A stretch of DNA of 64,000 nucleotides from positions 1-64,000 of IMG/VR virus record IMGVR_UViG_2895791493_000001; one strand, written 5' to 3'. The stretch comes from a virus. Taxonomy: Duplodnaviria > Caudoviricetes. Numbering within the stretch: the stretch's first letter is position 1; every line of letters starts with the position of its first letter. Below the pieces are notes generated by a model. That model was given only the letters and a program-made list of their open reading frames with translations. It had not been told where the DNA came from and did no database searches. Made by a program: the position numbers and the translations under genes. Positions 14,983-30,674 of the stretch are shown one piece after another.

Positions 14983-15173
14983 GCCTTACCCCCTGGCTTA
15001 CTACACAATCAAAACCCATCTAACCGAAAAACAGCTGCCCAAGTACTCGAATTTATGCCATGCGCGTATTACAATACAGAAATTAGCATATATTTTAATT
15101 TGCGACAGCACGCTCGAATTAAGCCTTGCGCCCCGCAGACAAGAGAGAGGTCGATCGGGGTATGCTCCCCCTC

Positions 15174-15941
15174 GTGATCACAGCAACGGTGTTCAACCAT
15201 GCCGGCGGCGCAGGCAAGACCAGCATCACCCGGGACGTCGGGTACGAGCTGTCCCGCGCGGGCCTGCGCGTCCTCCTGATCGACCTCGACCCGCAGGCGA
15301 ACCTGACGTCCTGGCTGGGCGTCCGTGGCGTCACCCTGTCCGCCACGGTGTACGAGGTGGCCACCGAGGGCGAAGGGCTCCCCGAGCCGATCAAGGTGCA
15401 CGGCATGCACCTGATTCCCAGTCAGGTGGACCTGGCGCTCGCCGAGACGGGCATGCTGGGCGCGCCCGGCTCGCAGCTGTTCCTCCGGCAGGCGCTGGAG
15501 CACGTGCGCGAGCAGTACGACGTGGTCCTGATCGACAGCCCACCCAGCGTCGGGCAACTGGCCATCCTGGGCGCCGCGGCCGCCGACCGGCTGATCGTGC
15601 CCATCCCCACCCGGCAGAAAGGCCTGGACGCCCTGCCAGGCCTCCAGAAGGCCACGAAGCTCTACCGGCGACTCCAGCCGGAACTGCGGGTGGCGCTGTA
15701 CGTGCCGACCATGTACAACGACCGGCGCAGTCACGACCGCGAGGTGCTGGCCATGCTCCGCGACGGCCTCACGCCCCTCGGGGAGCCGGTACCGGAGCGT
15801 GCGGCCGTGTGGCTGGATTCCACGACGGATGGCAGCCCCGTGGGCGTCTACGCGCCCGGCAGCCCGGTGCATCAGGACGTGCTGCGCCTCACGGCGGACG
15901 TGGCACGCGCCCTGAACCTGAACGTGGCGGTAACGGCATGA
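15174..15941 (+). CDS. parA: ParA family partition ATPase
   Basis: NHAGGAGKT deviant Walker [16 protein letters not shown]; leaderless TATGCT-7nt-GTG start. Confidence 0.95.
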
Positions 15942-16834
15942 CCCGCAAGCGCCCCGCGCCCCGCACGGGCATCGAAGGCCTGCTGAACGGAGCCTCGGCA
16001 CTGGCGGAAGCGCCCAGCGCCACCCTGCCTGTCACGGACCTGCGACCCTCAGCCTTCCAACCCCGGCGGCACTTTGACGAGACCAGCCTGACCGAACTGA
16101 CCGACTCCATCCGCAAGAACGGCGTCCTGCAACCACTCCTGGCACGCCCGTCAGACAACGGGTACGAGATTGTCGCTGGGGAACGCCGCTGGCGCGCCGC
16201 GCAGCAGGCCGGCCTGACCGAGGTGCCCGTTCACATCCGCGACCTCACGGACGAACAGGCCGTCCGCGCGGCCCTGCTGGAGAACCTGCACCGCGAGGAC
16301 CTCAACCAGTACGAGGAAGCGGCCGCCACCCTGCGCCTCGTCGCCCTGACCCTCGGCGTGGACGAGGACGTCGCGCGCGCCCGGATGTACGCCGCGGCGC
16401 GCGGCACGAACACCGAGGACCGCGAAGTACTCGAGGACCTGTTCGCCGCCGCGAGTCTCGGCAGCTGGCAGTCGTTCACGACGAACAAGCTCCGCATCCT
16501 CAGGTACCCGGACGCCATCGTCACGGCCATGCAGGGCGGACTGCACTACAGCATTGCCGCCGTCATCGCCGCCGCCCCCGACATCCATCAGGCGGAGCTG
16601 CTGGCCATGGCGCAGGGTGGCGCCGGGTACCGGGAAGTCAAGGCCCGCCGCGCCGCCCTGGAGGCCCGCGCAACCCCGCTGAAAGTGGACCCGGCACGCG
16701 TGACGGAAGTCGGTAAGCGCATCAGCAGCGTGAAGTGGCTCGGCACGCTCGACAACAAGGCGCAGAAGGAGCTGCAGGCCTGGCTGAACCGCATGCCCGA
16801 CAGCGTCCGGAAGGCTATGAACCTGCCGGACTGA
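15938..16834 (+). CDS. parB: ParB family partition protein
   Basis: [32 protein letters not shown]; ATGA-coupled to parA. Confidence 0.95.
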
Positions 16835-17110: not shown

Positions 17111-17860
17111 TTACGGCGACACGTTGGGCTCTGCGGCGGGGGGCGCGTCCGGCGTGGGGAAAAGCCGGAGGAAGCTCTCGTGGAGGTTCCTGAGCAGCGG
17201 CAGGACGCTACCCATGCTCAGTGCCTTTTCTTGATTGGGGTGCTGTAGGAGGTTGCGGATATCCTTCCACGCGGTCCACAGATCGCGCTGCGGGTCAGTG
17301 AAGTGCCCGGCAGCATGAAGGGCGTCCACGAGCTTGGCCATGCTCTGGTGTCCCTTGCCGGCGGTGACGCCGTGCTGGGCGGCATAGGCGCGTACGGCGG
17401 CTTCGGCGGCCAGGGCCAGGCGGGAGGCGCCGACGGTCATCATGGAGTACCGGAAACCCGCGTACGCGATGCAGTCGCAGCCCTCGGCGAGGTAGTGGCG
17501 GACGTCTTCCGGGAAGTGGTCGGGAATGGGTCCGAGGACGGCCGCGGCGAGGTCGGCAGGACGCATGGGGCCGAGGCGGCCCTGGCCGTCCGAGGCGACC
17601 ATGCCTGCGAGCGCCGGATCCGTGAAGGTCAGGTTGTCTGGGGTGAGCGGTCCGGTGCGGGTCAGGCCCTGCAGGGTGACTTCGGCGCCGAGGATGTCGA
17701 GGATGGTGTCGACGTGTTCGGGTGGGATGCGGTTGCCGCCGGCGATGAAGGCGGCGACGCTGGCGGTGCTGATGCCGAGGCGGCGGGCGAGTTCGGCCTG
17801 TGCGCCGCGTTTGGCGCGGATGGCGGCGCGCAGGTGGTCGTGAAGTTCGGTCTGGTTCAT
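17111..17860 (-). CDS. Xre-family HTH fused to a HEPN-like domain
   Basis: AQAELARRLGISTASV HTH; C-terminal RNLLQH (RxxxxH). Confidence 0.7.
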   Translation of the reverse strand: MNQTELHDHLRAAIRAKRGAQAELARRLGISTASVAAFIAGGNRIPPEHVDTILDILGAEVTLQGLTRTGPLTPDNLTFTDPALAGMVASDGQGRLGPMRPADLAAAVLGPIPDHFPEDVRHYLAEGCDCIAYAGFRYSMMTVGASRLALAAEAAVRAYAAQHGVTAGKGHQSMAKLVDALHAAGHFTDPQRDLWTAWKDIRNLLQHPNQEKALSMGSVLPLLRNLHESFLRLFPTPDAPPAAEPNVSP

Positions 17861-17869
17861 GGGTTCATC

Positions 17870-17928
17870 CTCCGTCAATACTAGACGCCAGACTAGCATT
17901 GACAGTCATTCTAGTGTATTATTTAGCC
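17870..17928. promoter_or_regulatory. divergent promoter/operator region
   Basis: AT-rich; TATTAT-6nt-ATG; three CTAG-containing motifs; TTGACA present. Confidence 0.55.
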
Positions 17929-18662: not shown

Positions 18663-19066
18663 CCCGCATCCTCGTCATCCGCCCGGACGGGCAGACGCTC
18701 GCCATGGACATGGACTCCGCGGGCGGCGCGGCCGGGCATTTCTGCGGCGGGATGGTCATCCGCCTGCCCGAGGCCTTCCACGCCCTGCACCACTACGAGG
18801 TGTGGCACCTCGACGACTGGGCTGGGCAGCCTGTGAACCGCGCCGCCGGCAACATCATCGGCCTGCCCTTCGCATACGAGCCCCTGCGCGGCACCGTGGT
18901 CCTCACGCGCCTCCCGGACGGCCAGGACACCCGCGCCGAACGGGAGCACCAGCGCCAGTACTTCGGAATGCTCGACGCGGTGGACGCTGGATTCTGCACC
19001 GCCGACGAGGCCGGCATCGACTACCTGATCCGCGTGAATTCAGACGAGGGAGATCATGCTGCCTAG
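18659..19066 (+). CDS. hypothetical protein (DUF3846-like)
   Basis: PVNRAA...LRGTVVL pattern. Confidence 0.55.
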   Translation: MTRILVIRPDGQTLAMDMDSAGGAAGHFCGGMVIRLPEAFHALHHYEVWHLDDWAGQPVNRAAGNIIGLPFAYEPLRGTVVLTRLPDGQDTRAEREHQRQYFGMLDAVDAGFCTADEAGIDYLIRVNSDEGDHAA

Positions 19067-19257
19067 CGCCCCACAGGCAATCTAAACCGCTAACAACGGT
19101 TTGAGGGCACCCGTAAATACAATCAAAATTTCTGAATGGCTCACAGAAATTTTCACTTCAAGCAACCGGCGCAATCCATCAGGATACGCGCCGGTTCAGC
19201 TTTTTGGAAGGCAAATTTGGTCTGGAACTTTCCGTGAATGAACCGCATAGTGATGAC

Positions 19258-19644
19258 ATGACAAGACCCGCACCGGCTACCATCGACTACAGCACCATCA
19301 TCACTGACGCGGCCCTGGAAGGCCGGAAACAAGCATCCGAAGCATTGCAGCCCGTCATCGAAATGTTTACGCGGTCGCTGATGGACGCCGGCTTCGTCAC
19401 GCTGATGGGGGTGGCGCTGATCGTGGCGGTCATGCTGATCGTCGGGGCGTTGCGGTCGGGCCGCATTCACGTTGCGCTGCTGTGCCTGGGCATCCTGGGC
19501 GTGCTGGGAGTGGTCGCCGATCACCTGCTTTCCACCGTCACGTTCACCTGGGCCAGCGCCGGCCTGGGCTTCATGCTGATCGTGGCGGCTGTAGCCAGAG
19601 GCTGGCGGGGTCTGCTGAGCCTCGCGCGGATCCTCACGCCCTGA
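19258..19644 (+). CDS. multi-pass membrane protein
   Basis: Three hydrophobic segments; flanked by AT-richer DNA with inverted repeats; start codon uncertain. Confidence 0.65.
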   Translation: MTRPAPATIDYSTIITDAALEGRKQASEALQPVIEMFTRSLMDAGFVTLMGVALIVAVMLIVGALRSGRIHVALLCLGILGVLGVVADHLLSTVTFTWASAGLGFMLIVAAVARGWRGLLSLARILTP

Positions 19645-19882
19645 ATCGAACCGGCCACTTCCGTCCAATTCCAGACTGACAGCAGCGGCGGGCAGCCCTG
19701 GCATTTGCCAGAATCGCCCGCCGCTGCACCTTGCGTTTGATGCCGAAATTTCTGCCGACCTGCATTCTGGTTGACAAATTCGGCCGAAATCTGCACTTCC
19801 AGCGCTTCTCACGAAGTGCAGAAAACCCAGCCTGAGATCACGCAATGCGTCGTATTGAATCTGCGTCAGCAGGTCGGGAGCT

Positions 19883-20542
19883 TCACTCCCACGCCTCGCT
19901 GTACGTCTCGCCCACGCCGTCGAGCAGGCCGCCGCGCTGGCGGTAGCGGAGCAGCTCGTCCGAGTCCATGCCCAGCGCCCGACCCACGTCGTCGAGCGCC
20001 ACGCCCTGGGCCAGCAGCGCCTCCACGAGGTCCTGCGTGCCCTGCACCGAGTGCGACCCGCGCGCCTCGTTGTGCAGCACGGTCGCCTCGATACGGCTCG
20101 CCACGTCCTGCCGGTCCCCGCGCGCCGTCGTGACCGGCAGGTACCCGTGCGTGCTCGCGCGAACCTTCGGGCGTTCCAGGACCACGCGGGTCCGGTGGAA
20201 CCCGTCGATGATCTCGCGGCGCTGCCCCTCCTCGCCCGGCCAGGTGGCGACCGGCATGGTGTACCCGCTGCGTTCGATGCTGCGGGTCAGGGCGCGCATC
20301 TCGGGCGGCGCGACGGTGTTGGGGTTGTAGGCGTTCGCCTGCACGTCGGTGGCCGGCACCCACTCCACGAGGTCCACAGGATGGTGGCGCAGGGGGCTGA
20401 CGGCGTGCAGGGCGCGGCGGGCGGTGTTCAGGGCCTGCACCTGGGCGTCGGTGCTGGGCAGCGCGGCGATGGCCTCGGCCAGCTGCGCGGCGAGGGCGGC
20501 GATGTCGGGCGCGGCCGGGTCGATCAGGCGGGGCTGGGTCAT
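19883..20542 (-). CDS. IbrB/YbdM-like ParB/Srx-domain protein
   Basis: SPLRHHPVD.V.WV, NAYNPNTVAPPEM..L..SI...GYTMP, EIIDGFHR, HNEARG. Confidence 0.9.
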   Translation of the reverse strand: MTQPRLIDPAAPDIAALAAQLAEAIAALPSTDAQVQALNTARRALHAVSPLRHHPVDLVEWVPATDVQANAYNPNTVAPPEMRALTRSIERSGYTMPVATWPGEEGQRREIIDGFHRTRVVLERPKVRASTHGYLPVTTARGDRQDVASRIEATVLHNEARGSHSVQGTQDLVEALLAQGVALDDVGRALGMDSDELLRYRQRGGLLDGVGETYSEAWE

Positions 20543-21027
20543 GGCGTCATGGCCTCCGGGTCGGCGTGGATGCGTTCGAGGGCGCGGACGTGCAGGGGAG
20601 CGACCTGGAACTGGTAGTCGGGGGCGTACAGGGCGTCGTGGATCAGGTAGAGCCGGGTGGGTTCCGGGTCCGGGTCCGTTTCGGCGCGCGTGAAGTGCCC
20701 GCCGCGCCAGGCGTAGACGGGACCGCGTTCGCTGCGGCGGTCGCCGGTCACGGAGACGCTGAACCGGGCCGCGTGGGTCAGGGCGTGCCAGGAGTGGCGG
20801 TGCAGGTCCCGCACGAGCTGCAGGTCGGCCAGGGCGCGCGCCTCGGTCATGGTGGGGGGAAGCGGTCCGATGGTGTCGAGGGCGTGCTGCATGCGCAGGG
20901 CGTGCCGGATCATGGCGGGCAGTCCGCGCGGGCTGCCGGCGATCATGGTGATGACATCCTCGGTCAGCATGGCCTGGACGCGCTGCGTGCGCCCTTCCGG
21001 TCCGACGGGGCGGCCGGGCCCGGTCAC
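20539..21027 (-). CDS. hypothetical protein
   Basis: GTGA-coupled to the GNAT-like gene, ATGA-coupled to the IbrB-like gene. Confidence 0.55.
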   Translation of the reverse strand: MTGPGRPVGPEGRTQRVQAMLTEDVITMIAGSPRGLPAMIRHALRMQHALDTIGPLPPTMTEARALADLQLVRDLHRHSWHALTHAARFSVSVTGDRRSERGPVYAWRGGHFTRAETDPDPEPTRLYLIHDALYAPDYQFQVAPLHVRALERIHADPEAMTP

Positions 21028-21422
21028 AGGGCCTTCTCCAGGGCGATGAACCCGCCGCGCAGGGCGCCGCTTTCGAAGCCCAGGTCGCGGTAGAAGTCGG
21101 CGTTCTCCAGCTTGGCCAGGATCTTCACGCGGCTCAGGCGCTGGCCCTTGGCATCGTCGAGCGCCGCCTGCACGGCGAGGCGCTTGGCGTCCACGTTGCC
21201 GCCCTGGGCGTACACGGCGACGAACTCTGCCCCGCCGTTCTTCTGGGGCTTGATGCCCGCGAACGCGACGGTCTGCCCGGCGTCCTGCACGGCTGTCCAG
21301 CGGTAGGTGGGCTCGCTGGTCATGGCGCTGCCGGTCGCCTGCCGGACCTCGGCAGACACGAAGAACGGCCCGAAGGTGGGGTAGAAGCCGGGGTCGGTCT
21401 GGCTGAGCGTCTCGGTTCGCAT
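21024..21422 (-). CDS. GNAT-fold acetyltransferase-like protein
   Basis: C-terminal NADFYRDLGF motif; SD GGAGG and its own AT-rich promoter. Confidence 0.6.
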   Translation of the reverse strand: MRTETLSQTDPGFYPTFGPFFVSAEVRQATGSAMTSEPTYRWTAVQDAGQTVAFAGIKPQKNGGAEFVAVYAQGGNVDAKRLAVQAALDDAKGQRLSRVKILAKLENADFYRDLGFESGALRGGFIALEKAL

Positions 21423-21429
21423 GCCTCCA

Positions 21430-21453
21430 TTTAATTACATACAAAATTAAATA
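21430..21453. promoter_or_regulatory. inverted repeat ATTTAATT...AATTAAAT in the promoter of the 21422 gene
   Basis: Direct reading. Confidence 0.5.
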
Positions 21454-21495
21454 GCAAGCGGGGGACGGGTCGCCCGCCCCCACCCATCCCATCCG

Positions 21496-21687
21496 CTAGG
21501 AACTCAACCGCAGGACCTCCAGCACGAACGGCAGCACCCGGTCCACCAGCGCCAGGAACGTCATCGACCCCAGCGCCCCCTGCGCCAGAGCCAGGACCGC
21601 GTCCCCCTGCGCCGGCGACCCGCGCCCCGACCAGAAGAAGACCAGCACGAACATCAGAACACCCGCTGTTTCCATTGAAACCTCCAC
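21496..21687 (-). CDS. small membrane protein
   Basis: Two hydrophobic stretches. Confidence 0.4.
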   Translation of the reverse strand: MEVSMETAGVLMFVLVFFWSGRGSPAQGDAVLALAQGALGSMTFLALVDRVLPFVLEVLRLSS

Positions 21688-21869
21688 TCAGGGCAGCGTG
21701 CCCTGGTGGAGAAATGATCGTGCAGGCCGGGATTTTCGTTTTACCAGATCTGGTACGGCCCCCAGAGGCCCAGATCCGCCCGTCGCCATACCCCGAGGGC
21801 CACTTCCCATGGCATTCCGCGCCGATCTCATGCCGTCCGGGCACGCGCCCATGCCCGGACCACCACCCT

Positions 21870-22349
21870 TCAATGCACGCTGCGCTCCGGCAGGTCGTCC
21901 AGATCCAGCCGACCGGCCAGCACCACGCCGTCCGCCTCCATGACCGTGTACCCGCCCCGTTGCCCCGTCCCGACGAACCCCAGGCGCACCAGGCGCGGGA
22001 AGCTGTGTGCGTTCGCCATCACCCGCACCCGCCGCGCCTGCGCCAGCACCGCCAACCCCAGCCGCGCGTCCACCAGCGCCCCATGCACGCCCTGCCCCCG
22101 GAAGGCCGGCAGCACGAACGCATGGTCGAGCAGTGCCACACTCCCCTCCACCCGGACGCTCGCGACGCCCTGCACCTGCCCGCCATCCACCGCGACCGCC
22201 CAGCTGGTCCGGTCATCGTCCGTGAACGGCCCGCCCAGCTCCCGCTGCGCGGCGCGGGACGCGAAGACCGGCCCCGCCCACTCCCAGAACTCGGCGGGCC
22301 GGTGCCCGGGCAGGAACGTCAGGACTTCGAGGGTGTCAGAGATCGGCAT
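21870..22349 (-). CDS. GNAT family N-acetyltransferase
   Basis: AFVLPAFRGQGV motif A; RLGF. Confidence 0.85.
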   Translation of the reverse strand: MPISDTLEVLTFLPGHRPAEFWEWAGPVFASRAAQRELGGPFTDDDRTSWAVAVDGGQVQGVASVRVEGSVALLDHAFVLPAFRGQGVHGALVDARLGLAVLAQARRVRVMANAHSFPRLVRLGFVGTGQRGGYTVMEADGVVLAGRLDLDDLPERSVH

Positions 22350-23577
22350 ACTTTTCCTTTCGCGCGGCCGTCCTGGCCGCGTCTTTCTTCGTGACGCCGA
22401 AACTCAGTCTCTGGCACCAGTAGTCGTTCTTCAGGAGCGTGATGCACACGTTCCGCCAGCTGCCCGCCGTGCCCGCCCGCTCGTACCGCTCCTCGGACAC
22501 GTCGTTCAGGTCCTCCCAGCCCCGGTTGACCTTGAACCAGTCCAGGAACACGCCGATCTTCCCCTCGTAGTGCGCGCGCAGCTCGGGCGGCAGGCTGGCC
22601 AGGATCGCCTGCGCGTACGCCCGCCACGTCGGGTACGTCGGCGGCAGCACGAACTGCCCCCGTGCGGCCAGCAGCTCGCTGTCCCCACGCCGCGCCCCGA
22701 AGTTCGCGCCCTGCACGCGCGCCACCAGCCGCGCCCACGTCTGCGGCTCCAGCCGGCGGATCAGCGCCAGGTTCTTCCTGGCTTCCGGCCCGAACGGCTC
22801 GTCGATCCGCATCTCCGCGAGACTCAGGCCCGCGAGGTGCATCATCTCGTACACTCGGTTCACCGGAATGCCCGCGTCCCGGTGGTACCGCCAGACGTCC
22901 TCGACCTCCCAGTCGTAGATGGGGTAGAAGTTCCACAGCTCGTGCGCCGGGTCGCGCTTGAGGGGCTTGACCACGCGGGTACTCCAGGCGCGGCCGCCGT
23001 AGCTTTCGCGGTCCCGGCTGCTCTTCCGGACCGTGGCGTACCGGTGCAGGCTCTCAGCGGCCCGCAGGCCCACCAGGAACGCCGCGCGGCCCCCTGCGAC
23101 CTCCAGGCCGTACCAGCGGCTGAACGCCGGCAGGAACGACTCGAACGTCATGTCGGTCCGGTACCAGTCCCAGTGCGCCGGGTCCGACACGACCCCCGCC
23201 CCGGTCGGCAGGTCCCGCACCCACACGTCCCGCCGCGCCGGATCCCACGCCGTCCACAGCGGCTCGTACACACTGCTCGCGTTGTCGGTCGTCAGGGGCA
23301 GCGCCACCCAGATCGGGTTCACGCCCGGCCGGCCCAGCATGGCCTGCACGTGCGCGATGGTCCCGGCGTACTGCGCCTCCCAGTCGATGAACAGCACGTC
23401 CACGGTCCGGCCCCGGCTCACGGCTTCCAGGCGCGCGAGTTCCAGCAGCACCGTGCTGTCCTTCCCGCCGCTGAAACTCACGCACACCCGGTCGAACTCG
23501 TCGAACAGCCCCCGCACCCGCGCCCGCGCCGCGTCCAGCACGCTCAGGCCCAGCGGCGTCTTCTTCGCGGCCTTCAC
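22336..23577 (-). CDS. PAPS-reductase-like / DUF3440 protein (IbrA/YbdN-like)
   Basis: SFSGGKDS PP-loop, FIDWEAQY, GLRAAESLHR, YPIYDW, LKNDYWCQRLSF. Confidence 0.92.
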   Translation of the reverse strand: MKAAKKTPLGLSVLDAARARVRGLFDEFDRVCVSFSGGKDSTVLLELARLEAVSRGRTVDVLFIDWEAQYAGTIAHVQAMLGRPGVNPIWVALPLTTDNASSVYEPLWTAWDPARRDVWVRDLPTGAGVVSDPAHWDWYRTDMTFESFLPAFSRWYGLEVAGGRAAFLVGLRAAESLHRYATVRKSSRDRESYGGRAWSTRVVKPLKRDPAHELWNFYPIYDWEVEDVWRYHRDAGIPVNRVYEMMHLAGLSLAEMRIDEPFGPEARKNLALIRRLEPQTWARLVARVQGANFGARRGDSELLAARGQFVLPPTYPTWRAYAQAILASLPPELRAHYEGKIGVFLDWFKVNRGWEDLNDVSEERYERAGTAGSWRNVCITLLKNDYWCQRLSFGVTKKDAARTAARKEKYADL

Positions 23578-24986
23578 GCGACCCGCCGGACGAACAGATC
23601 CCCGAGGCGCGACCGGACGGCCTGCAGGTCATTCACGCGGCCCACCTCCCGCCGGAACTGCGCGCTCACGCTGCTCTTGCGGTCGTACGCCGCCGCGATG
23701 CGGTCCTCGATGCCGCAGACCGCCCGGACGTCCAGGTACGTCACGGCGCTCCGCTGCCCGATCCGGTGGTTGCGCAGCTCCGCCTGGTAGTTCTCGGTGT
23801 ACGAGAACCCCCGCTGGTAGAACGCCGCGTACCGCGCCTCGTTCAGCGTCAACGCCCGCCCACCGGTCCCAGGAGTGCCCAGCAGGAACCGCGGCCCCGC
23901 CGGATCCCGCCACGCCGCCAGCGCCGCGTCCCGCGCCCGGACGGTCATCTGCCCGTGATGCAGCGCGGCGCCACCCAGTTCGTCGAGGAGTCCCTGCACC
24001 TCGCGGAGGCTGTGGTGGAACTTCACCCAGACGATCACCTTCTCCCCGGCCGGCACGCGGCCCAGCGCGTACCGCAGCGCCTCCAGGCGGCGGTGCCGGA
24101 ACGTCAGGTGCTCCACCGCGCCCGTCTTCGAGTCGCGGCGGTTGTAGAACCCGCTCGCGATCTCCTGCAGCGCCGTGAACAGCCGGTAGATGTGCGCGCT
24201 GGTCAGCTCCTCGTCCGGCACGCCGTCCAGCAGGTCCCAGCGGGCCTGCCCGTACGCCTCGTCCTGCTCGCCCGTGAGGTCCAGGAACACCGGGTCCCAC
24301 AGTTGCGCCGGCAGGTCCAGGCACTCCTCCCGCGTCACCTGGTACGTGTACGGCCCGATCCGGCTGGCCAGGACGTCCTGATCCCGGATCCGCTCGATCT
24401 GCCCCTTGAACTTCTCGCTCCAGTCCACGTGGTCGAGGCTGAACGCCGTCCAGCTCCGGTACCCGAGGATGCGGGAGTCGAGGAAGCGCATCTGCGCGAA
24501 CAGGTTGTGCACCCCTTCCGGGACGGGCGTGCCGGTCAGGATCAGGCGGCCCCAGGCGGGCGCGGCGAGCATCGTGGCGCGCAGCGTGCGCCGGGCGTGC
24601 GGGGTGCGGAGCATGTCGCTCTCGTCCGCCACGACCAGCGTCGCGTCGTCGATCAGACCCGAGAGGGCCAGGGTCACGCGGTCGCTGCTGCTCAGGCTCT
24701 CCATGCCGACCACGTACCAGTACGCCTCCGGCACCCGCCCCGGACGGGTCCGGTCGCTGAACACGTGAATGTCCGCCGCCCCGAACGTCGTGTGCTTCAG
24801 GATCTCCTGCCGGATCGTCTCTTTCGCTGCGACCGGGCACAGCCAGACCACGCGCCGCACCCGGTGCTGCCGCCGGGCGGCCAGCTCGATCGCCGTGCGG
24901 GTCTTCCCGGTGCCGGGATCCTGGAACAGCGCCCCGACCCGCAGGCCCTGGAGTTTGTCCGCAGCGGCCCGCTGGTGCGCCATCAT
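23574..24986 (-). CDS. SNF2-family helicase
   Basis: PGTGKT, VADES, LTGTP, QAELRNHRIGQ. Confidence 0.9.
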   Translation of the reverse strand: MMAHQRAAADKLQGLRVGALFQDPGTGKTRTAIELAARRQHRVRRVVWLCPVAAKETIRQEILKHTTFGAADIHVFSDRTRPGRVPEAYWYVVGMESLSSSDRVTLALSGLIDDATLVVADESDMLRTPHARRTLRATMLAAPAWGRLILTGTPVPEGVHNLFAQMRFLDSRILGYRSWTAFSLDHVDWSEKFKGQIERIRDQDVLASRIGPYTYQVTREECLDLPAQLWDPVFLDLTGEQDEAYGQARWDLLDGVPDEELTSAHIYRLFTALQEIASGFYNRRDSKTGAVEHLTFRHRRLEALRYALGRVPAGEKVIVWVKFHHSLREVQGLLDELGGAALHHGQMTVRARDAALAAWRDPAGPRFLLGTPGTGGRALTLNEARYAAFYQRGFSYTENYQAELRNHRIGQRSAVTYLDVRAVCGIEDRIAAAYDRKSSVSAQFRREVGRVNDLQAVRSRLGDLFVRRVA

Positions 24987-24997
24987 CTTCCGATCTT

Positions 24998-25843
24998 CTA
25001 GTCTGCCAGGAGGTCATCGGGGACGCTCACCTCCCTGGGTTTCTTCGCGCGGGGCTTGCGCTTGGGCTGGAGGGGTTCCGGCACGTCCAGCACCAGCAGC
25101 TGGCGGCGCTCCGCCTCGGCGGCGGCCAGCAGCAGCGCGTCCGCCTCGGGCGTCGCCGCGAACGCGAACCGCTCCGCGAAATCCCGGACGTCCGCGTACC
25201 GGGCAGCGCTGATCACGGTGCCCTGCAGGGCCGTGTCCCAGTGGGCGCCGCGCAGGTGTTTGGTGGCCTCCCACACCTCGTCCCCGCCCTTCTCCCAGCG
25301 CAGCAGTACGTCCCCGGACTTCAGCGGCAGGATCCAGCGTTTCGTGGCGGGAATCCAGCGGCCCGTCACGATCAGGTCCGCGATGGTCGCGCTGCTGACC
25401 GACACGATGAACCCGGCGCGCAGCAGGTCCGCGCCGAGTTCCGCCACGCGGTGCTGCGCGGGGCCTTCCAGGACGTTCAGGGTGCGGGTCCAGCAGAACT
25501 CCCGCTCGTTCCACTCGAACCCGGCGGCGCGGACCACGGCGCGGAACGCTTCGTTCTTCTCGCGCAGGCGGGCGCGCAGGCCCCGGCCGTCCTGGGTGGG
25601 CCACACGCTGGCCACCTCGACGGTGACGGGGGAGGCGGGCCGCAGCACCGTGGCGCCCTCCGACACGGCCGCGTCATCGGACGTGACCGGCAGCAGCGCG
25701 TACCGGGGGCGGGCCCAGCCGATCAGGCGACCCAGTTCGTCCGGGCCGATCGCATCGATGAATGCCGCGAGGTCGGCGCTGACGATCATCTGCACGCGCT
25801 TCCTGACCCCTTCTTTTCTCGGTCGCCCTCTCTTCTTCATCAT
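24998..25843 (-). CDS. helicase-associated protein with N-terminal RHH-like DNA-binding segment
   Basis: KKRGRPRK...VQMIVSADL; leaderless TATAGT-7nt-ATG. Confidence 0.65.
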   Translation of the reverse strand: MMKKRGRPRKEGVRKRVQMIVSADLAAFIDAIGPDELGRLIGWARPRYALLPVTSDDAAVSEGATVLRPASPVTVEVASVWPTQDGRGLRARLREKNEAFRAVVRAAGFEWNEREFCWTRTLNVLEGPAQHRVAELGADLLRAGFIVSVSSATIADLIVTGRWIPATKRWILPLKSGDVLLRWEKGGDEVWEATKHLRGAHWDTALQGTVISAARYADVRDFAERFAFAATPEADALLLAAAEAERRQLLVLDVPEPLQPKRKPRAKKPREVSVPDDLLAD

Positions 25844-25883
25844 TTGTGCCACTATATTACGCCACTTGAGCATTTTATGCCAC
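25843..25883 (-). promoter_or_regulatory. three direct repeats GTGGC(A/G)(T/C)AA overlapping the promoter
   Basis: Copies at 25843-52, 25856-65 and 25874-83. Confidence 0.55.
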
Positions 25884-25901
25884 CAAAATAAGAGGAAAAC
25901 A

Positions 25902-25926
25902 GGCGGACCCCGCCCGGAGGTCCGCC
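25902..25926 (-). terminator. intrinsic terminator
   Basis: GGCGGACC...GGTCCGCC hairpin followed by TGTTTT on the - strand. Confidence 0.6.
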
Positions 25927-25935
25927 CACACGCAT

Positions 25936-26316
25936 TTATTCCCGGTTCAGTTCTTCCAGCAGCTCGGCGGCCTTCGCGCCGGCCTGTTCGAGTGCCTGCA
26001 CCATCACGCTGTTCACGCCTGCCCGGCCACCCGTGGCCCGTCCGAGCACCAGGCCCCGGTACGTTACCGTGACGCTCACCTGTCCGCGTGACACGCTGCC
26101 CCGACCGTCCTGCCGGACGATCCGCAGCGGGCTCGCGTCGCCGGTCGGCATCTCGCCGTCGTACGCCTCATCCGCGAGTTCACTGGCCGCGCCCACGACG
26201 TCCTCCAGTTGTAGCGCCGCTTCCACCAGCTGCTCGCCGGGTGTGCCGCCGCTGGCCAGGGTGGCCACGCGCCCACCCAGGGCCAGCTCAATCCGGCCAT
26301 CCAGGATGCGGATCAC
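25936..26316 (-). CDS. hypothetical protein (internal duplication of a ~60-aa unit)
   Basis: GTGA coupling. Confidence 0.6.
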   Translation of the reverse strand: MIRILDGRIELALGGRVATLASGGTPGEQLVEAALQLEDVVGAASELADEAYDGEMPTGDASPLRIVRQDGRGSVSRGQVSVTVTYRGLVLGRATGGRAGVNSVMVQALEQAGAKAAELLEELNRE

Positions 26317-26888
26317 CCGTCCACCGCCGGTCCAGGCAGCTCGATCTGCCAGCGCACCTGGCCCGCCCCGCTGATCTCCACGCCGCCGATCAGCCAGCAG
26401 GGCGCCCCGTTGCCCTGATCGCCGAGCGGCCGCACGCGGTAGTCGGCGGGCGCGTCACTCAGGTCGGCGTCCAGGTGCGCGGGCAGCCGGGCGTACAGCG
26501 GGCCGGCGTGCTGAAACCGGGCGCCCTCGCTGGGGCCGTTCCCGGTCTGGAGGAGGCCCTGCAGGGAGGTCAGGAGCGTGACGGCCTCCTCCAGATCCCC
26601 GAGCGGCCGGGCGGGGCGCTGGGCGGGCCGGGCGTAGGCGACGAGTGTCAGGCCGCGCGGCGTGGGGCGCAGGATCTCCACGGTGTCCCGCTGCCGGCGG
26701 GGGTCGTGCGGGTCGAACGCGGCGACCTGCTCGGGCGTCAGGACGGCGAGGGCCTGAACGTTCACGGGGCTGAACGGCTCGGTGCCGCTGAGTTCGGGCA
26801 GGTGGACGTACAGGTGGCCGGTCCCGGCGAGGGGCAGGGCGCGCAGCTGGAGGTTCGTGCCGAGGGGCGTGACGGTGGGCTGGTTCAT
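26313..26888 (-). CDS. hypothetical protein
   Basis: ATGA coupling. Confidence 0.6.
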   Translation of the reverse strand: MNQPTVTPLGTNLQLRALPLAGTGHLYVHLPELSGTEPFSPVNVQALAVLTPEQVAAFDPHDPRRQRDTVEILRPTPRGLTLVAYARPAQRPARPLGDLEEAVTLLTSLQGLLQTGNGPSEGARFQHAGPLYARLPAHLDADLSDAPADYRVRPLGDQGNGAPCWLIGGVEISGAGQVRWQIELPGPAVDG

Positions 26889-27208
26889 GGGGTCACCTCG
26901 CCCGCAGTGTCCGGAATCGACGCGTCTTTGAGTGACGCCTGTCCGGGGCGCAGGCTGGCGCACACGGCGCGGCCCAGGCCCAGTTCCTCGAACGCCACGC
27001 TGGTCAGGGTGATCGTGTCCGGGCTCCACGCGGTCGCTTCCATGCGGCGCATCACGTCGGCCGGGGTGACACCGTCCGGGACGCCGGTCACGTCGAGCAC
27101 CTGCGGGACGTTCCGGGCGCGGTTCATGGGGCGGGGCTGCCAGTTGCCGATCACGCACGGACGCCACTGGAAGGTCATCGGGCCGCGCTGCATGCGGACC
27201 GTGCTCAC
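26885..27208 (-). CDS. hypothetical protein
   Basis: GTGA coupling. Confidence 0.55.
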   Translation of the reverse strand: MSTVRMQRGPMTFQWRPCVIGNWQPRPMNRARNVPQVLDVTGVPDGVTPADVMRRMEATAWSPDTITLTSVAFEELGLGRAVCASLRPGQASLKDASIPDTAGEVTP

Positions 27209-27582
27209 GCGCGGCTCCCGGCGCGGCGGGTGAGATCGCGGGCGGCAGCCGTCAGGCCGTCGAGGTCGGGGGTGCGCACGTAGGCGCCAGTCTCCCGCCC
27301 GCGGTTGGGGTACCACCCGACGTACTCTGCGGGGCGGTCCAGGACGTCCTGCTCGGCCAGCAGGGACTCGCCACGCATCAGGCGCAGGCGGTAGCCGATG
27401 GGGGTGTCGTAGCGGTCCAGCAGGGCGGCGAACCGCAGCACTGGCTCGGTCAGGCCGGGCCGGGAGTTGCCGTGAATGACGGCAACGGCAGCGCCGGCCG
27501 TCAGGGCGCGGTAGGCGAGGGTGGGGGCGAGACGGACGAACTGACCGGTGGGCTGCTGGGCGGGGCGGGTGGTCTGGGGCAT
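27205..27582 (-). CDS. hypothetical protein
   Basis: SD AGGAG. Confidence 0.65.
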   Translation of the reverse strand: MPQTTRPAQQPTGQFVRLAPTLAYRALTAGAAVAVIHGNSRPGLTEPVLRFAALLDRYDTPIGYRLRLMRGESLLAEQDVLDRPAEYVGWYPNRGRETGAYVRTPDLDGLTAAARDLTRRAGSRA

Positions 27583-27634
27583 GGCGGGTCTCCTGTGGGG
27601 GCGGGTGGGGGCCGGGCGGCCCCCTGGGCGGGGT

Positions 27635-27805
27635 TCAGGAAGCGCGGGCGGTGGGGGCGTCGAGGCGGGCGCGGTGGAAGGCTTCGGCGCGGTCGAGTTC
27701 GGCGAGGAGCTTCTGGTAGTCGGCGTGAGCCTGGGCGCGGGCGGCGGCGATGGCGGTCAGGGCGGCGTGGGACTCGGCGGGCGTGGGGTTCAGGGGGGAG
27801 TTCAT
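27635..27805 (-). CDS. small helical protein
   Basis: SD GAGG before MNSPLNP. Confidence 0.55.
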   Translation of the reverse strand: MNSPLNPTPAESHAALTAIAAARAQAHADYQKLLAELDRAEAFHRARLDAPTARAS

Positions 27806-27855
27806 GTCGGACCTCGTGGGGGGTGGGTGGGGGCCGGTGTGGCCCCCGGTCGTGG

Positions 27856-28206
27856 TTACTGGTGGGTGAGTTTCAGCAGGGCCCATTCCTGGACGGTGAG
27901 GCCGTGGTCGGCGGCTTCCTGCTGGAGGCGGGTCCAGGCGTCGTGGGGGACGTGCAGGCTGAGCTGGTGGGGTTCCTGGCCGTGGGTGTGGACGCGGTTG
28001 CCGTTCTTGGCGCTGAGGCGGGCGCTGGTGAGGGCCTTCTGGGCGGCTTTGATCGGGTCGGCGTGCAGTCCGGCGGGGCGGTGGCGGTGGGTGTCGAGGA
28101 TGCTGGTGCGGCCGTGGGCGTCTTGGGTGGCCTCGTACCGGTTGGGGAAGAGGGCGTTGGCCTGGTCGAGCAGGTCCTGTGCTTCCGGGGGGAGCGTTGC
28201 CTTCAT
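27856..28206 (-). CDS. protein with C-terminal ribbon-helix-helix-like domain
   Basis: LSLHVPHDAWTRLQQEAADHGLTVQEW; leaderless promoter. Confidence 0.65.
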   Translation of the reverse strand: MKATLPPEAQDLLDQANALFPNRYEATQDAHGRTSILDTHRHRPAGLHADPIKAAQKALTSARLSAKNGNRVHTHGQEPHQLSLHVPHDAWTRLQQEAADHGLTVQEWALLKLTHQ

Positions 28207-28207
28207 G

Positions 28208-28241
28208 CCACTAGGATATATATCCTAGTGGAGCAAGTCAA
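28208..28241 (-). promoter_or_regulatory. sigma70 promoter TTGACT-17-TATCCT overlapped by a perfect 24-bp palindrome CCACTAGGATATATATCCTAGTGG
   Basis: Direct reading; palindrome at 28208-28231. Confidence 0.85.
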
Positions 28242-28267
28242 GAGGGGGCACACGGCCCCCCAACCGA

Positions 28268-29056
28268 TCAGAGCGTGTCGCCCTCGTCCTCGTCTGCCTG
28301 CGCGCTGTCCCAGCCGGTGTAGAACTCCGACAGGAAGGCGCGGCGCTCCGGCGTGACCGGCAGGCGCACACCGATCGCCCCGGCGCCGCCCGTGGCCACG
28401 TTGTTCGCACCCCAGAAGTCGCCGTCCATGCCGTTGTTCCGCAGGTGCCACACGACCTGGGCGCCCGGCTCGACGTGCAGCTCCTCGCCGCCACCGTAGA
28501 TGGTGAAGCCCGCACCGATCTTCAGGCGACGGCCCTCGATCAGGCGGTGGTGCCCGCCCGGAATCTCGCCGTCCGCCTGGGCTGCCTGGAACAGCTGGCG
28601 CAGGCCCTCGTCGTGGCGCCGCCGGCGCTCCAGGGCATGGAGGCTGGCTTCACGGCGGGCGATGAGGGGTGCGGCCTCCTCGGGCGTGGCGCGGCGGGCC
28701 AGGGCCGAGTACAGGTAGCCGTTGTCGTCACCCACGCCGAAGCTCAGGCCGTCCTGGCGGATGTAGCGGCGGCTGGCGCGGGTGATGACCAGCGCGTGGC
28801 CGGGATCGCGGGTCTGGGTTTCGGCGTTCCAGGGTTCGTGCCAGACGACCTCACCGATCCTCCAGCCGTCGCAGTCGTACCCGCTGCCGCCGGAGAGGCG
28901 GATGTCGCCGCCGGGGTTGGGGACGTCGGCGCGGTAGTAGCCGAATTCGTCGCGGGCGATGCGGGTGCCGGCAGGGTAGGGCTGGCCGGTGCGGGTGCAG
29001 ACGCCCTTGTACTGGGCCGTGATGACTTCACCGGGAACGGGCTGGGATCGGGTCAT
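28268..29056 (-). CDS. hypothetical protein
   Basis: SD AGGAGG; own promoter. Confidence 0.75.
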   Translation of the reverse strand: MTRSQPVPGEVITAQYKGVCTRTGQPYPAGTRIARDEFGYYRADVPNPGGDIRLSGGSGYDCDGWRIGEVVWHEPWNAETQTRDPGHALVITRASRRYIRQDGLSFGVGDDNGYLYSALARRATPEEAAPLIARREASLHALERRRRHDEGLRQLFQAAQADGEIPGGHHRLIEGRRLKIGAGFTIYGGGEELHVEPGAQVVWHLRNNGMDGDFWGANNVATGGAGAIGVRLPVTPERRAFLSEFYTGWDSAQADEDEGDTL

Positions 29057-29072
29057 GGGGTGGGCCTCCTAA

Positions 29073-29106
29073 CCAGTAGGATATATATCATTATGGAGAT
29101 ATTCAA
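29073..29106 (-). promoter_or_regulatory. promoter TTGAAT-17-TATCCT with a 20/24 copy of the operator
   Basis: CCAGTAGGATATATATCATTATGG at 29073-29096. Confidence 0.8.
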
Positions 29107-29127
29107 GCGGTTCTTCCCGCCTGCCGC

Positions 29128-29922
29128 TCATGCCTTCGGTTTCTCCGGGAACTGCCGGCGGTCCACCATGCCCAGGTCCTCGTCGTACCCCAGCAGGCGC
29201 ACTGGCACGTCCGGCCCGAATCCTGGATCGACGTACCACGCCTCCCCGTCCCGCTCCTCGAGGTGGGCTTCGCCCCGCCCGATCGCCTCGGCCACCACCT
29301 CGCGGATGCGCTCGTCAGCGATCAGGTCATGCAGCCCCAGGGTGTCCGCGATATCCGCCTGCGCTTCCCGCATGGACTCCGTGACGGGCACCGTGATGCC
29401 GGCCTGCTCGGTGATCCATGCGCGGCGCACCAGGGCCTGCGCCGTGAACCGCTGCTGGTACGCGGCGACGTCCGCGTCGTACGTGGCGCGGCGGAACGGC
29501 CGGGCTGCCTGACCTTCCAGGAGTTCGTGCAGCTGCGCCGTGAACTGCGGCGTGACGGTCGCGCTCCGAATGCCGCGCAGGATGCCGGTTTTCGCGTCCA
29601 CCAGCAGCCACTGGATCAGGGTGTGCCCGATCACGGGCAGGCCCCGTTCGTCGGCCGGCATCAGCCGCGCGTCGTACGGTGCGTCACTCCAGTCCATCAC
29701 GCCCGGCATCCTGGCCAGCAGGATCACGACGCTGCCGTGACTGGCCAGCCCCACCTCGAAGGGACGGGTGGTATCCCGGAACGCGGCAGCTTCCGCGTCC
29801 GTGACGCCGCCCAGCGCGACCATGACTTCCATCCGCTGGGCGCTCAGGCCGAACACGTGCAGGCCTTCAGGCCAGACCGAGACGTTCGGGTGGTAGCGCT
29901 GCCCGACTTCCAGCAGCGGCAT
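29128..29922 (-). CDS. hypothetical protein
   Basis: TGATG coupling to the upstream gene. Confidence 0.7.
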   Translation of the reverse strand: MPLLEVGQRYHPNVSVWPEGLHVFGLSAQRMEVMVALGGVTDAEAAAFRDTTRPFEVGLASHGSVVILLARMPGVMDWSDAPYDARLMPADERGLPVIGHTLIQWLLVDAKTGILRGIRSATVTPQFTAQLHELLEGQAARPFRRATYDADVAAYQQRFTAQALVRRAWITEQAGITVPVTESMREAQADIADTLGLHDLIADERIREVVAEAIGRGEAHLEERDGEAWYVDPGFGPDVPVRLLGYDEDLGMVDRRQFPEKPKA

Positions 29923-30281
29923 CAGCGGGCCGCCAGGGCGCGGCGCAGGGCAGCGTTGAAGTGCGCGGTGCGCGTACCGGGCAGCGCGCCCAGCGCCGTC
30001 CACTGGGCGTCTTCGATGTACACGCCGACCTGGGTGGGCGGGGCCGTCTCGCCGGTCCGGTACCGGCCGCTCCCATCACGCGGGCGGGCGAGGTCGGGTT
30101 CCGGGTCGAGGAGGTACGCGGCGAGCGCGTCGCGGACGAACGGGCTCTTCGGGCTGGGTACCTCGTTCCAGAGGTCCGGGTCGGCGTAGGGGTTGCGGCT
30201 GCGGCCGTTCTTCAGGATGTTGGGTCGCCCGCCGACTTTCGGGGCGGGGGCCGGGCTGGGGGTGGTGTCGCCGTCCGTCAT
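29922..30281 (-). CDS. tandem RHH-like putative repressor
   Basis: Two similar units (NPYADPDLW..FVRDALAAYL / GVYIEDAQW..FNAALRRAL); leaderless TATGCT-6-ATG. Confidence 0.55.
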   Translation of the reverse strand: MTDGDTTPSPAPAPKVGGRPNILKNGRSRNPYADPDLWNEVPSPKSPFVRDALAAYLLDPEPDLARPRDGSGRYRTGETAPPTQVGVYIEDAQWTALGALPGTRTAHFNAALRRALAAR

Positions 30282-30290
30282 GCGCCGAGC

Positions 30291-30314
30291 ATAACAAAAT
30301 ATATATCCTAGTGG
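30291..30314 (-). promoter_or_regulatory. third, partial copy of the operator (ATATATATCCTAGTGG)
   Basis: 16 contiguous matches, just upstream of the 30281 gene. Confidence 0.75.
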
Positions 30315-30378
30315 CGTGAGGGCTCAGGCCGTGAACAGCTCCGCCGGCAGTGGCCCCCACGCCTGCAGCTCGCCCTAC

Positions 30379-30543
30379 TCAGCAACCCGCGCAGGGATCG
30401 ACCAGCGCCACCGGCGCGCAGCCGTAACAGGGCGGACCGGCTGTCACCGTGCCCCACGCCAGCGCGGCCAGCAGGAGCAGCGCCATGCCCCAATACCGGA
30501 CTGCCAAGGGCCAAACCTGCAACTGTTCCACGCTGTGAGTCAT
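30379..30543 (-). CDS. 54-aa membrane peptide with CxxC..CxxC tail (not in the ORF track)
   Basis: TAGCCT-6nt-ATG; MALLLLAALAWG hydrophobic core; CYGC, CAGC. Confidence 0.4.
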   Translation of the reverse strand: MTHSVEQLQVWPLAVRYWGMALLLLAALAWGTVTAGPPCYGCAPVALVDPCAGC

Positions 30544-30674
30544 ACCCGCAGGCTACTCGCGTTTCTCGTCCGGCGCTGCTGGAAGTCGCTCCAGGGTCAG
30601 CCGGAAGCGCAGGGCGACCTCTGACGCGCAGAGGCCGCGCCCCATGTCCACCTCGTGTCAGCAGGCCCATCTGT

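Follow-up and report, generated by a model that had tools for sequence, protein, structure and literature searches.

The present analysis concerns a cassette of eight genes on the minus strand, between positions 25873 and 19883, of a 64,000-nucleotide stretch of viral DNA. This stretch, called the window in the following, represents the first 64 kb of the 99,725-bp IMG/VR virus record IMGVR_UViG_2895791493_000001, which has direct terminal repeats. The cassette encodes an IbrA/YbdN-type PP-loop enzyme, an IbrB/YbdM-type ParB/Srx protein, an SNF2-family ATPase, a protein of 291 amino acids (p291), two proteins of the GNAT acetyltransferase family (GNAT1 and GNAT2) and two further proteins of 59 and 162 amino acids. 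The G+C content of the window is approximately 70%; the list of open reading frames (ORFs) is rich in artefacts at such a high value, and the genes were called by frame analysis of third-position G+C together with family scans. The cassette genes proved to be real and to lie where the first-pass annotation had placed them, and its description of a layout of seven genes (p291, SNF2, a PP-loop protein with a DUF3440 domain, an overlapping GNAT, a GNAT-like gene, a gene without assignment and an IbrB-like gene) is borne out; the eighth gene, the 59-aa ORF, was missing from its list. Overlaps of 4 to 14 nt couple SNF2 to IbrA, IbrA to GNAT1, GNAT2 to the 162-aa protein and the latter to ParB. Overall, the cassette elaborates, in a lineage-specific way, on the IbrA/IbrB-SNF2 cassette that is widespread in phages. 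It consists of two units, with p291, SNF2, IbrA and GNAT1 in unit 1 and the 59-aa ORF, GNAT2, the 162-aa protein and the IbrB-type ParB protein in unit 2.

The SNF2-family ATPase (23574..24986, minus strand) is a minimal core with a Walker A motif (GTGKT), a DESD box and the motif VI QAELRNHRIGQ. It matches the Pfam families SNF2-rel_dom (PF00176; 1.8e-9, 37.5 bits, cut-off 24.9) and Helicase_C (PF00271; 2.8e-6, 28 bits, cut-off 23.5) as well as phrog_62 (4.8e-79), and it shows weak similarity to DpdE models (7.5e-12). IbrA (22336..23577, minus strand), which overlaps the SNF2 gene by 4 nt, is a PP-loop ATP pyrophosphatase of the PAPS-reductase family with an additional DUF3440 domain (PAPS_reduct PF01507: 1.4e-14, 54.9 bits, cut-off 22.5; DUF3440 PF11922: 1.9e-26, 93.3 bits, cut-off 25), and it matches phrog_2302 over its full length (approximately 4e-77). 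The PP-loop SFSGGKDS is present at its N-terminus, and the SGGKDS part of this motif is invariant in all 94 homologues that were aligned. Many tryptophans are invariant in the same alignment, but a single cysteine, C388, is conserved. Resemblance to solved structures is confined to the N-terminal 70 residues (CysD and FAD synthase), and the sequence identity to the copies from Escherichia, Pseudomonas, Microcystis, Clostridium, Streptococcus and Mycobacterium phages amounts to 31-42%. For an enzyme with this fold, one would naturally expect that it adenylates a substrate at the expense of ATP.

One candidate for such a reaction is DNA phosphorothioation of the Dnd/Ssp type, in which IbrA would be the analogue of DndC or SspD and bring sulfur into the DNA backbone, while IbrB would take the role of DndB. 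This idea finds some support in the pairing of a PP-loop enzyme with a protein of the ParB superfamily, which parallels DndC-DndB (PMC10853773), and in weak local matches to DndC and BrxP models. However, the analogy drawn in the first-pass annotation is weak. IbrA reaches 22.8 bits with the DndC equivalog model TIGR03183, far below the cut-off of 290.4, and the cysteine set of DndC is missing. The earlier observation that no cysteine desulfurase is found in the window holds and can be extended to the whole 99.7-kb genome, where a search with PF00266 gave no match although the positive control was found in 14 of 14 genomes; IscS or SufS of the host could serve in its place. The scan of the cassette proteins against PADLOC yielded no defence-system assignment and only weak similarities to DndC, BrxP, ZorD and DpdE, and the DndD and DndE models remained unmatched. 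Since the DndC score is far below the cut-off, only one cysteine is conserved and no cysteine desulfurase is encoded, phosphorothioation of the Dnd type is not supported, and we regard it as most improbable.

The first gene of the cassette, p291 (24998..25873, minus strand), encodes the partner protein of the SNF2 ATPase, with a basic, AT-hook-like N-terminus followed by tandem beta-beta-alpha domains. The true start of the protein is probably the ATG at 25843 and not that at 25873, since the Atlas record begins at residue 11 and the orthologue in the relative L012 comprises 279 aa; the transcript would then be of the leaderless type, with a TAATAT hexamer 11 nt upstream. No Pfam family is matched by p291, but there are 970 representative homologues, typically of 370-400 aa, that share a conserved C-terminal domain of approximately 215 aa. 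In two homologues (P0033 and P0120) this domain is fused to an SNF2 helicase and stands on its N-terminal side. The AlphaFold2 (AF2) model (pLDDT 88) consists of tandem beta-beta-alpha units, of which residues 177-245 superpose on the damage-recognition domain of XPB (2fz4; Z 6.1, root mean square deviation 1.8 A over 55 residues), and on the N-domain of T4 UvsW (1rif; Z 6.0). Matches in the viral structure library BFVD and in the Atlas are to the N-terminal parts of phage helicases. The Z-scores alone are modest, but because of the fusions with SNF2 the assignment of p291 as a putative split-off N-terminal DNA-binding module of a helicase, similar to those of XPB and UvsW and predicted to form an arm of the SNF2 motor, is convincing. 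The description of this protein as led by a ribbon-helix-helix (RHH) domain is not supported by any tool, as its N-terminus shows just the AT-hook-like KKRGRPRK and then two helices. An RHH reading was also tried for the 162-aa protein and rejected for both, as Pfam gave no support and a BLASTP comparison between the two N-termini resulted in an E-value of 9.

The last gene of the cassette (19883..20542, minus strand) encodes the IbrB/YbdM-type ParB/Srx protein. It carries the motifs NxYNPN, DGFHR and RHNxARG, all three of which are invariant in the alignment of homologues, and a C-terminal segment similar to a helix-turn-helix (HTH). The protein matches phrog_2159 (2.3e-52); the Pfam search gave no match for the window copy, but its orthologues carry PF02195. 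Directly upstream lies the gene for the lineage-specific 162-aa protein (20539..21027, minus strand), which starts with GTG and overlaps both GNAT2 and ParB by 4 nt, an arrangement that indicates translational coupling. The 317-aa ORF listed at 20539-21492 is over-extended, an artefact of the high G+C content, since coding is confined to the final 162 codons and the frame of 21024-21422 is used upstream; the start at 21027 is backed by the frame plot as well as by the relatives and by the Atlas record. The Atlas holds neither a model nor neighbours for this protein.

Unit 2 begins with the hydrophobic 59-aa ORF (21496..21675, minus strand), which is 53% identical in L012 and 98% identical in the Deinococcus seoulensis contig BMQM01000017.1 (L101), and which is absent from a second relative, L013. 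An AT-rich gap of 73 bp between this ORF and GNAT2 is conserved. The 194 nt ahead of the 59-aa ORF (21676..21869, minus strand) form a structured intergenic region with a folding z-score of -3.1, and within it the segment 21686-21758 is near-identical in L012, while the coding DNA is only approximately 85% identical. This segment holds the palindrome CCAGATCTGG and a 7-bp hairpin ahead of the ribosome-binding site of the 59-aa ORF. Judged from its conservation, it is probably the promoter/operator of unit 2 or an RNA element. Rfam gave no match at E ≤ 1 over positions 19000-27000, and thus no twister ribozyme. A scan for the sigma-70 consensus found no promoter in the cassette, and all statements on promoters rest on conservation and on the structure of the D. 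seoulensis relative. The earlier proposal that the second half of the cassette has a promoter of its own is supported by this relative, in which an element with 92% identity keeps that half (59-aa ORF, GNAT2, 162-aa protein and ParB) alone.

The two GNAT proteins differ clearly from each other. GNAT1 (21870..22349, minus strand), whose gene overlaps that of IbrA by 14 nt, possesses an intact acetyl-CoA loop (RGQGVHG) and exceeds the cut-offs of Acetyltransf_1 (PF00583; 28 bits, cut-off 20.7) and PF13673 (27.7 bits, cut-off 23.6). GNAT2 (21024..21422, minus strand) is a degenerate paralogue of the same subfamily. Its matches to the GNAT families of Pfam are below the threshold (E-values of 0.04-0.13), but BLASTP relates it to GNAT1 (8e-7), and its AF2 model (pLDDT 95.4, pTM 0.90) has the canonical GNAT topology b1-a1-a2-b2-b3-b4-a3-b5-a4-b6-b7. 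Foldseek returned 471 PDB matches at E ≤ 1e-3, and among the matches listed all have the GNAT fold (best match 5jph, E-value 2e-8, TM-score 0.73). The designation of this second gene as GNAT-like is therefore correct with regard to the fold. The RxxGxG/A loop for CoA, however, is missing and is replaced by QGGNVDAKR, a segment of different length, throughout the whole clade of 132-aa proteins to which GNAT2 belongs and whose members are 63-94% identical to each other. Several GNATs of the subfamily from other sources lack the loop as well. An N-terminal signature (F-Y/W-x-x-x-G-x-x-F-x-S ... G ... W) is common to GNAT1, GNAT2 and the proteins found between IbrA and IbrB in other cassettes. The tree of the subfamily is compatible with a tandem duplication as well as with a separate acquisition of GNAT2, and long-branch attraction between GNAT2 and other degenerate copies has to be considered.

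The distribution of the core genes is broad, as IbrA/IbrB with an SNF2 partner occurs in 224 INPHARED records and in hundreds of bacterial species. In 80 species-representative genomes with IbrA, a ParB gene is adjacent in 77, whereas SNF2 is found in 16 and p291 in four. The GNAT subfamily, in contrast, is small, since its profile recovers only 20 clusters among 5.8 billion proteins. All neighbourhoods that were read, namely the contigs of three clusters (P0014, P0024 and P0015) and the viral loci L005-L009 and L011, adjoin IbrA/IbrB, and the contigs that were fetched show the order p291-like, SNF2, IbrA, GNAT and ParB. The same order lies beside terminase and capsid genes in a prophage of Synergistota. 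The order p291, SNF2, IbrA, ParB, with or without the GNAT and with overlapping stops and starts, is also present in viral contigs (51-61% GC) and in metagenome-assembled genomes (MAGs) of Bacillota. A GNAT of the subfamily occurs in eight of the 80 IbrA loci, which represent five phyla (Desulfovibrio, Nitratidesulfovibrio, Coproplasma, Caccovicinus, a planctomycete, a proteobacterium, an uncultured Bacilli MAG and Streptomyces griseocarneus). All eight matches to the hidden Markov model of the subfamily lie within 1.5 kb of IbrA, and none was found elsewhere in approximately 1 Mb of flanking DNA. The form with twin GNATs is also present in the relatives L012 (GNAT1 84% identical) and L013 (56%). 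A tblastn search with two GNATs against INPHARED, which comprises isolated phages and some metagenome-assembled genomes, retrieved no record with the GNAT-bearing form at the sensitivity of tblastn.

By their sequences, both GNATs are thus members of one small subfamily that is seen only beside IbrA/IbrB wherever the surroundings were read. The survey of gene neighbourhoods proposed in the first-pass annotation, which asked whether the GNATs are conserved next to homologous modules, was carried out, and it shows that they recur within IbrA/IbrB cassettes in phages and prophages that are unrelated. The observation that the ybdN/ybdM-type pair is split by GNATs is right insofar as the two genes are normally adjacent; a GNAT between IbrA and IbrB is, however, a recurrent variant and not a peculiarity of this phage. 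In the locus of the uncultured Bacilli MAG (L052, positions 1-636) one ORF even joins the SNF2 C-terminus, including motif VI, to a GNAT of the IbrAB type, followed by IbrA and ParB; the N-terminus of this fusion is missing, because the contig ends there. No longer fused forms of the GNAT were found in the set of 5.8 billion proteins, which is weak evidence, given that the L052 fusion surfaced in the genome loci. The GNATs are optional but recurrent accessories of IbrAB cassettes and probably not part of the core chemistry. Since a GNAT is missing from approximately 90% of the IbrAB loci and is often degenerate where it occurs, adenylation followed by acyl transfer, as proposed earlier, cannot be the core mechanism. 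The presence of one intact copy beside a degenerate one suggests a heterodimer of a catalytic subunit and a pseudo-enzyme. The window offers a natural contrast in this respect, with an intact and a degenerate copy within a dedicated subfamily that the fusion ties to the motor.

A comparison with D. seoulensis is of special interest, since it separates the two units. A homologue with 93% identity to the 162-aa protein is encoded in this species, and the 88.7-kb D. seoulensis contig that carries it matches the window in blocks of 83-95% nucleotide identity; therefore, the host is probably a Deinococcus, and the 99.7-kb element is probably a phage or phage-plasmid of this genus. Around the cassette, the homology extends from position 19070 to 21884, ends 12 nt inside the 3' end of GNAT1 and resumes at 30614. 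In place of the window stretch 21885-30613, which holds GNAT1, IbrA, SNF2, p291 and a cluster of small genes, the D. seoulensis element (L101 1429-9076) contains a type I-C cas3-cas5-cas8c-cas7 operon and a CRISPR array of 27 repeats of 37 nt. No cas1, cas2 or cas4 was seen in this stretch, and for none of the 26 D. seoulensis spacers was a convincing counterpart found in the window (best match 20/22). With its replacement by a type I-C CRISPR-Cas system, unit 1 behaves as exchangeable conflict cargo and the position of the cassette as a hot spot for such cargo. Another difference between the two elements concerns L101 13821-15433, where a CBASS-like pair (a protein with the C-terminal domain of CD-NTases and a Cap15-type effector) lies beside an HTH gene; the genes of the window differ there. 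The two elements represent a natural, near-isogenic pair that differs in SNF2, IbrA and GNAT1.

Both elements have retained all four unit 2 genes in intact form, and these genes are under purifying selection, with synonymous to nonsynonymous codon differences of 14:5 for ParB and 11:5 for GNAT2. It is conceivable, that unit 2 is independent of IbrA, as a toxin-antitoxin system of the GNAT type or as a partition or regulatory set that lies beside the SNF2-IbrA-GNAT1 cargo. Its persistence without unit 1, its own conserved upstream element and the layout of a GNAT with a small DNA-binding partner, which is that of AtaT/TacT-type systems, fit this assumption. On the other hand, GNAT2 is a member of the subfamily linked to IbrAB and no longer possesses the CoA loop, which a toxin would require, the gene order is reversed in comparison to GNAT-RHH pairs and no RHH domain was detected. 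In addition, the ParB protein is an IbrB orthologue, which elsewhere directly follows IbrA or the GNAT, and in L013 units 1 and 2 are contiguous, with a gap of 32 bp. An independent unit 2 is therefore improbable.

Some features around the cassette complete the description of the locus. A terminator-like hairpin with a 13-bp stem and a T tract (25899..25929, minus strand) closes the preceding operon and delimits the cassette at its beginning. At its other end, an inverted repeat with arms of 22 nt (19682..19727) lies between the cassette and a convergent gene and is probably the end of the transcription unit. The convergent gene itself (19204-19644, plus strand) is suggested by third-position G+C in place of a listed minus-strand ORF (19153-19845), and the region has 71% identity at the protein level in the D. 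seoulensis element. The window also encodes, a few kb further downstream, a ParA-type ATPase (15126-15941; AAA_31, 5.5e-34) and a Xre/YdaS-type HTH protein (17111-17899), which fits a plasmid-like lifestyle, and the G+C content falls to 55% at positions 14001-16000. At the DNA level, a search with the cassette against the INPHARED phage collection gave a single 55-bp match of chance size.

Overall, a function of the cassette that is directed at DNA is well supported. DNA is the most likely target, as indicated by the core of the SNF2 ATPase, its arm resembling XPB and UvsW, the ParB fold and the fusions of the p291 domain with SNF2 and of SNF2 with the GNAT. As an alternative, RNA might be the target, with IbrA acting like TilS, TtcA or ThiI and the GNAT like TmcA, so that translation would be reprogrammed during infection. 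Among the characterised PP-loop enzymes with nucleic-acid substrates, most act on tRNA, and a helicase module is joined to a GNAT in TmcA. However, SNF2 motors have duplex DNA as their track, the partner domain resembles DNA-binding N-domains, IbrB is a DNA-binding protein with ParB fold, and tRNA-related genes are linked to the cassette in none of the loci inspected. In our opinion, an RNA target is quite improbable.

The best single explanation, which we put forward tentatively and with slightly less than even confidence, is a covalent, ATP-activated modification of DNA that helps the element in conflicts. According to this explanation, the proteins of the cassette would act jointly on duplex DNA. 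The p291/SNF2 pair would translocate on the DNA or open it, and IbrB would load onto it as an NTP-dependent clamp or as a nickase. IbrA would spend ATP for the adenylation of a DNA group, either a base carbonyl or the backbone, and a nucleophile could then replace this group. The resulting covalent mark would serve the element against restriction or defence systems. The GNAT pair would be an optional addition, in which an active enzyme and a pseudo-enzyme most likely form a heterodimer; it might acylate the newly introduced group or one of the partner proteins, or might regulate the complex. A more specific form of this idea, which we consider possible but unlikely, is an undescribed modification in which IbrA adenylates a base carbonyl in the duplex opened by the split SNF2 motor, as TilS and ThiI do on tRNA, an amine or thiol is added and, where GNATs are present, a heterodimer of active and pseudo-GNAT acylates the product; the whole would then be swappable counter-defence cargo at a hot spot that is also used by type I-C CRISPR-Cas in sister elements. 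If the cassette indeed marks DNA, it would represent a new class of phage anti-restriction chemistry.

Several points weigh against a DNA modification. Of the uncharacterised DNA modification proposed in the first-pass annotation, only the DNA-directed role is supported, by SNF2, its XPB/UvsW-like partner and the ParB fold with the HTH-like segment. The searched literature contains no biochemical function for IbrA/IbrB. The GNAT profile comes nearest to solved structures of acetyltransferases for small molecules and proteins, the latter including RimI, Ard1 and the Sulfolobus PAT 3f8k, and not to those of DNA modifiers. Since the D. seoulensis relative keeps unit 2 without IbrA, SNF2 and GNAT1, the picture of the seven genes as one indivisible machine is weakened. 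IbrB and GNAT2 either act without these three proteins in cis, or they borrow the second, divergent pair of IbrA (449 aa) and ParB (172 aa) that D. seoulensis possesses in another prophage, directly upstream of terminase-like genes (L103 8203-10067, contig C27). Finally, the pattern of ybdNM in the Enterobacteriaceae is unlike that of an anti-restriction system.

Alternatively, the cassette might be a device for gene expression or chromatin that remodels protein-DNA complexes, for instance to counteract silencing by nucleoid proteins, and thereby switches on genes of the phage or its cargo. SNF2 would strip or slide proteins, IbrB would bind DNA, the GNAT would acetylate a nucleoid or transcription protein and IbrA would perform an ATP-dependent step on a protein or cofactor. 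SNF2 enzymes are the classic remodellers of protein-DNA complexes, the protein acetyltransferases mentioned above are among the structures nearest to the GNAT profile, and the chromosomal ybdNM genes form a regulated operon (PMC9068703). In contrast, it is difficult to see what an adenylating PP-loop enzyme would do in remodelling, and approximately 90% of the loci do without the GNAT. The cassette is also present in Moineauvirus phages of S. thermophilus, which we take to be lytic, and the annotated stretch contains neither an integrase nor a repressor. We therefore consider such a device rather unlikely, and a DNA modification remains the explanation that we prefer.

The comparison with known systems helps to place the cassette. 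The prophage/island pair IbrA/IbrB of E. coli and YbdN/YbdM of strain K-12 belong to the same families as the window proteins (a PP-loop enzyme with PAPS_reduct and DUF3440, and an IbrB-type ParB protein), and so do the phage proteins annotated as PAPS reductase and ParB-like partition protein. The E. coli reference pair is known from a regulatory phenotype. While IbrA and IbrB are adjacent in 77 of 80 other loci, approximately 1.8 kb and four genes (GNAT1, 59-aa ORF, GNAT2 and 162-aa protein) intervene in the window, on the same strand and divided between two transcription units. In Enterobacteriaceae, chromosomal ybdNM is a stable operon with a LysR-type repressor and without SNF2 (PMC9068703).

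Among the systems that act on DNA, Dnd pairs a protein of the ParB superfamily (DndB) with a PP-loop enzyme of the PAPS-reductase family (DndC) (PMC10853773), and the Ssp and BrxP modules contain a comparable pair. In contrast to Dnd, the cassette lacks a protein that reaches the DndC cut-off or has its cysteine set, as well as DndA, DndD and DndE, and the SNF2 and GNAT partners are foreign to Dnd. In the Dpd system for 7-deazaguanine, an enzyme that modifies DNA bases is accompanied by a ParB-like ATPase (DpdB) and a helicase of the SNF2 type (DpdE) (PMC12839542). The enzyme of the window is a PP-loop protein instead, and neither TGT/DpdA nor preQ0 genes were seen in the cassette, for which no family search was made. 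The comparative papers on Dnd and BREX (PMC10853773, PMC12839542) cover DndB/DndC, BrxP and GNAT/TGT systems, but not the IbrA/IbrB-SNF2 cassette. Mom of phage Mu has a GNAT fold as well and belongs to the conflict setting of a phage (PMC7824862). Scans with Pfam and PHROG assigned the window GNATs to generic acetyltransferase families only, with no dedicated comparison to Mom, and GNATs of the window type differ from Mom in being optional and often without a CoA loop. AtaT/TacT-type GNAT-RHH toxin-antitoxin systems differ in their gene order, as GNAT2 precedes the 162-aa protein, in the RHH domain, for which there was no match at E ≤ 5, and in the CoA loop lost from GNAT2.

The closest counterpart is the phage cassette of four genes, an unknown protein followed by SNF2, IbrA and IbrB, as represented by genes 28-31 of Clostridium phage phiCs5676-1, which has the same order and coupling. 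Together with SNF2, IbrA/IbrB ranks among the most common enzyme sets of phages whose reaction is still to be identified, and annotations usually assign it wrongly to sulfur metabolism or to partition. The window version adds the GNAT pair and two lineage-specific genes to this cassette. New with respect to the known systems are the twin GNATs, the SNF2-GNAT fusion, the structure of two units and the swap with type I-C CRISPR-Cas, as well as a proposed fold and role, based on structure models and homologues, for the conserved first gene of IbrA/IbrB cassettes, which has been listed as unknown so far and may well encode the DNA-binding arm of their SNF2 motor.

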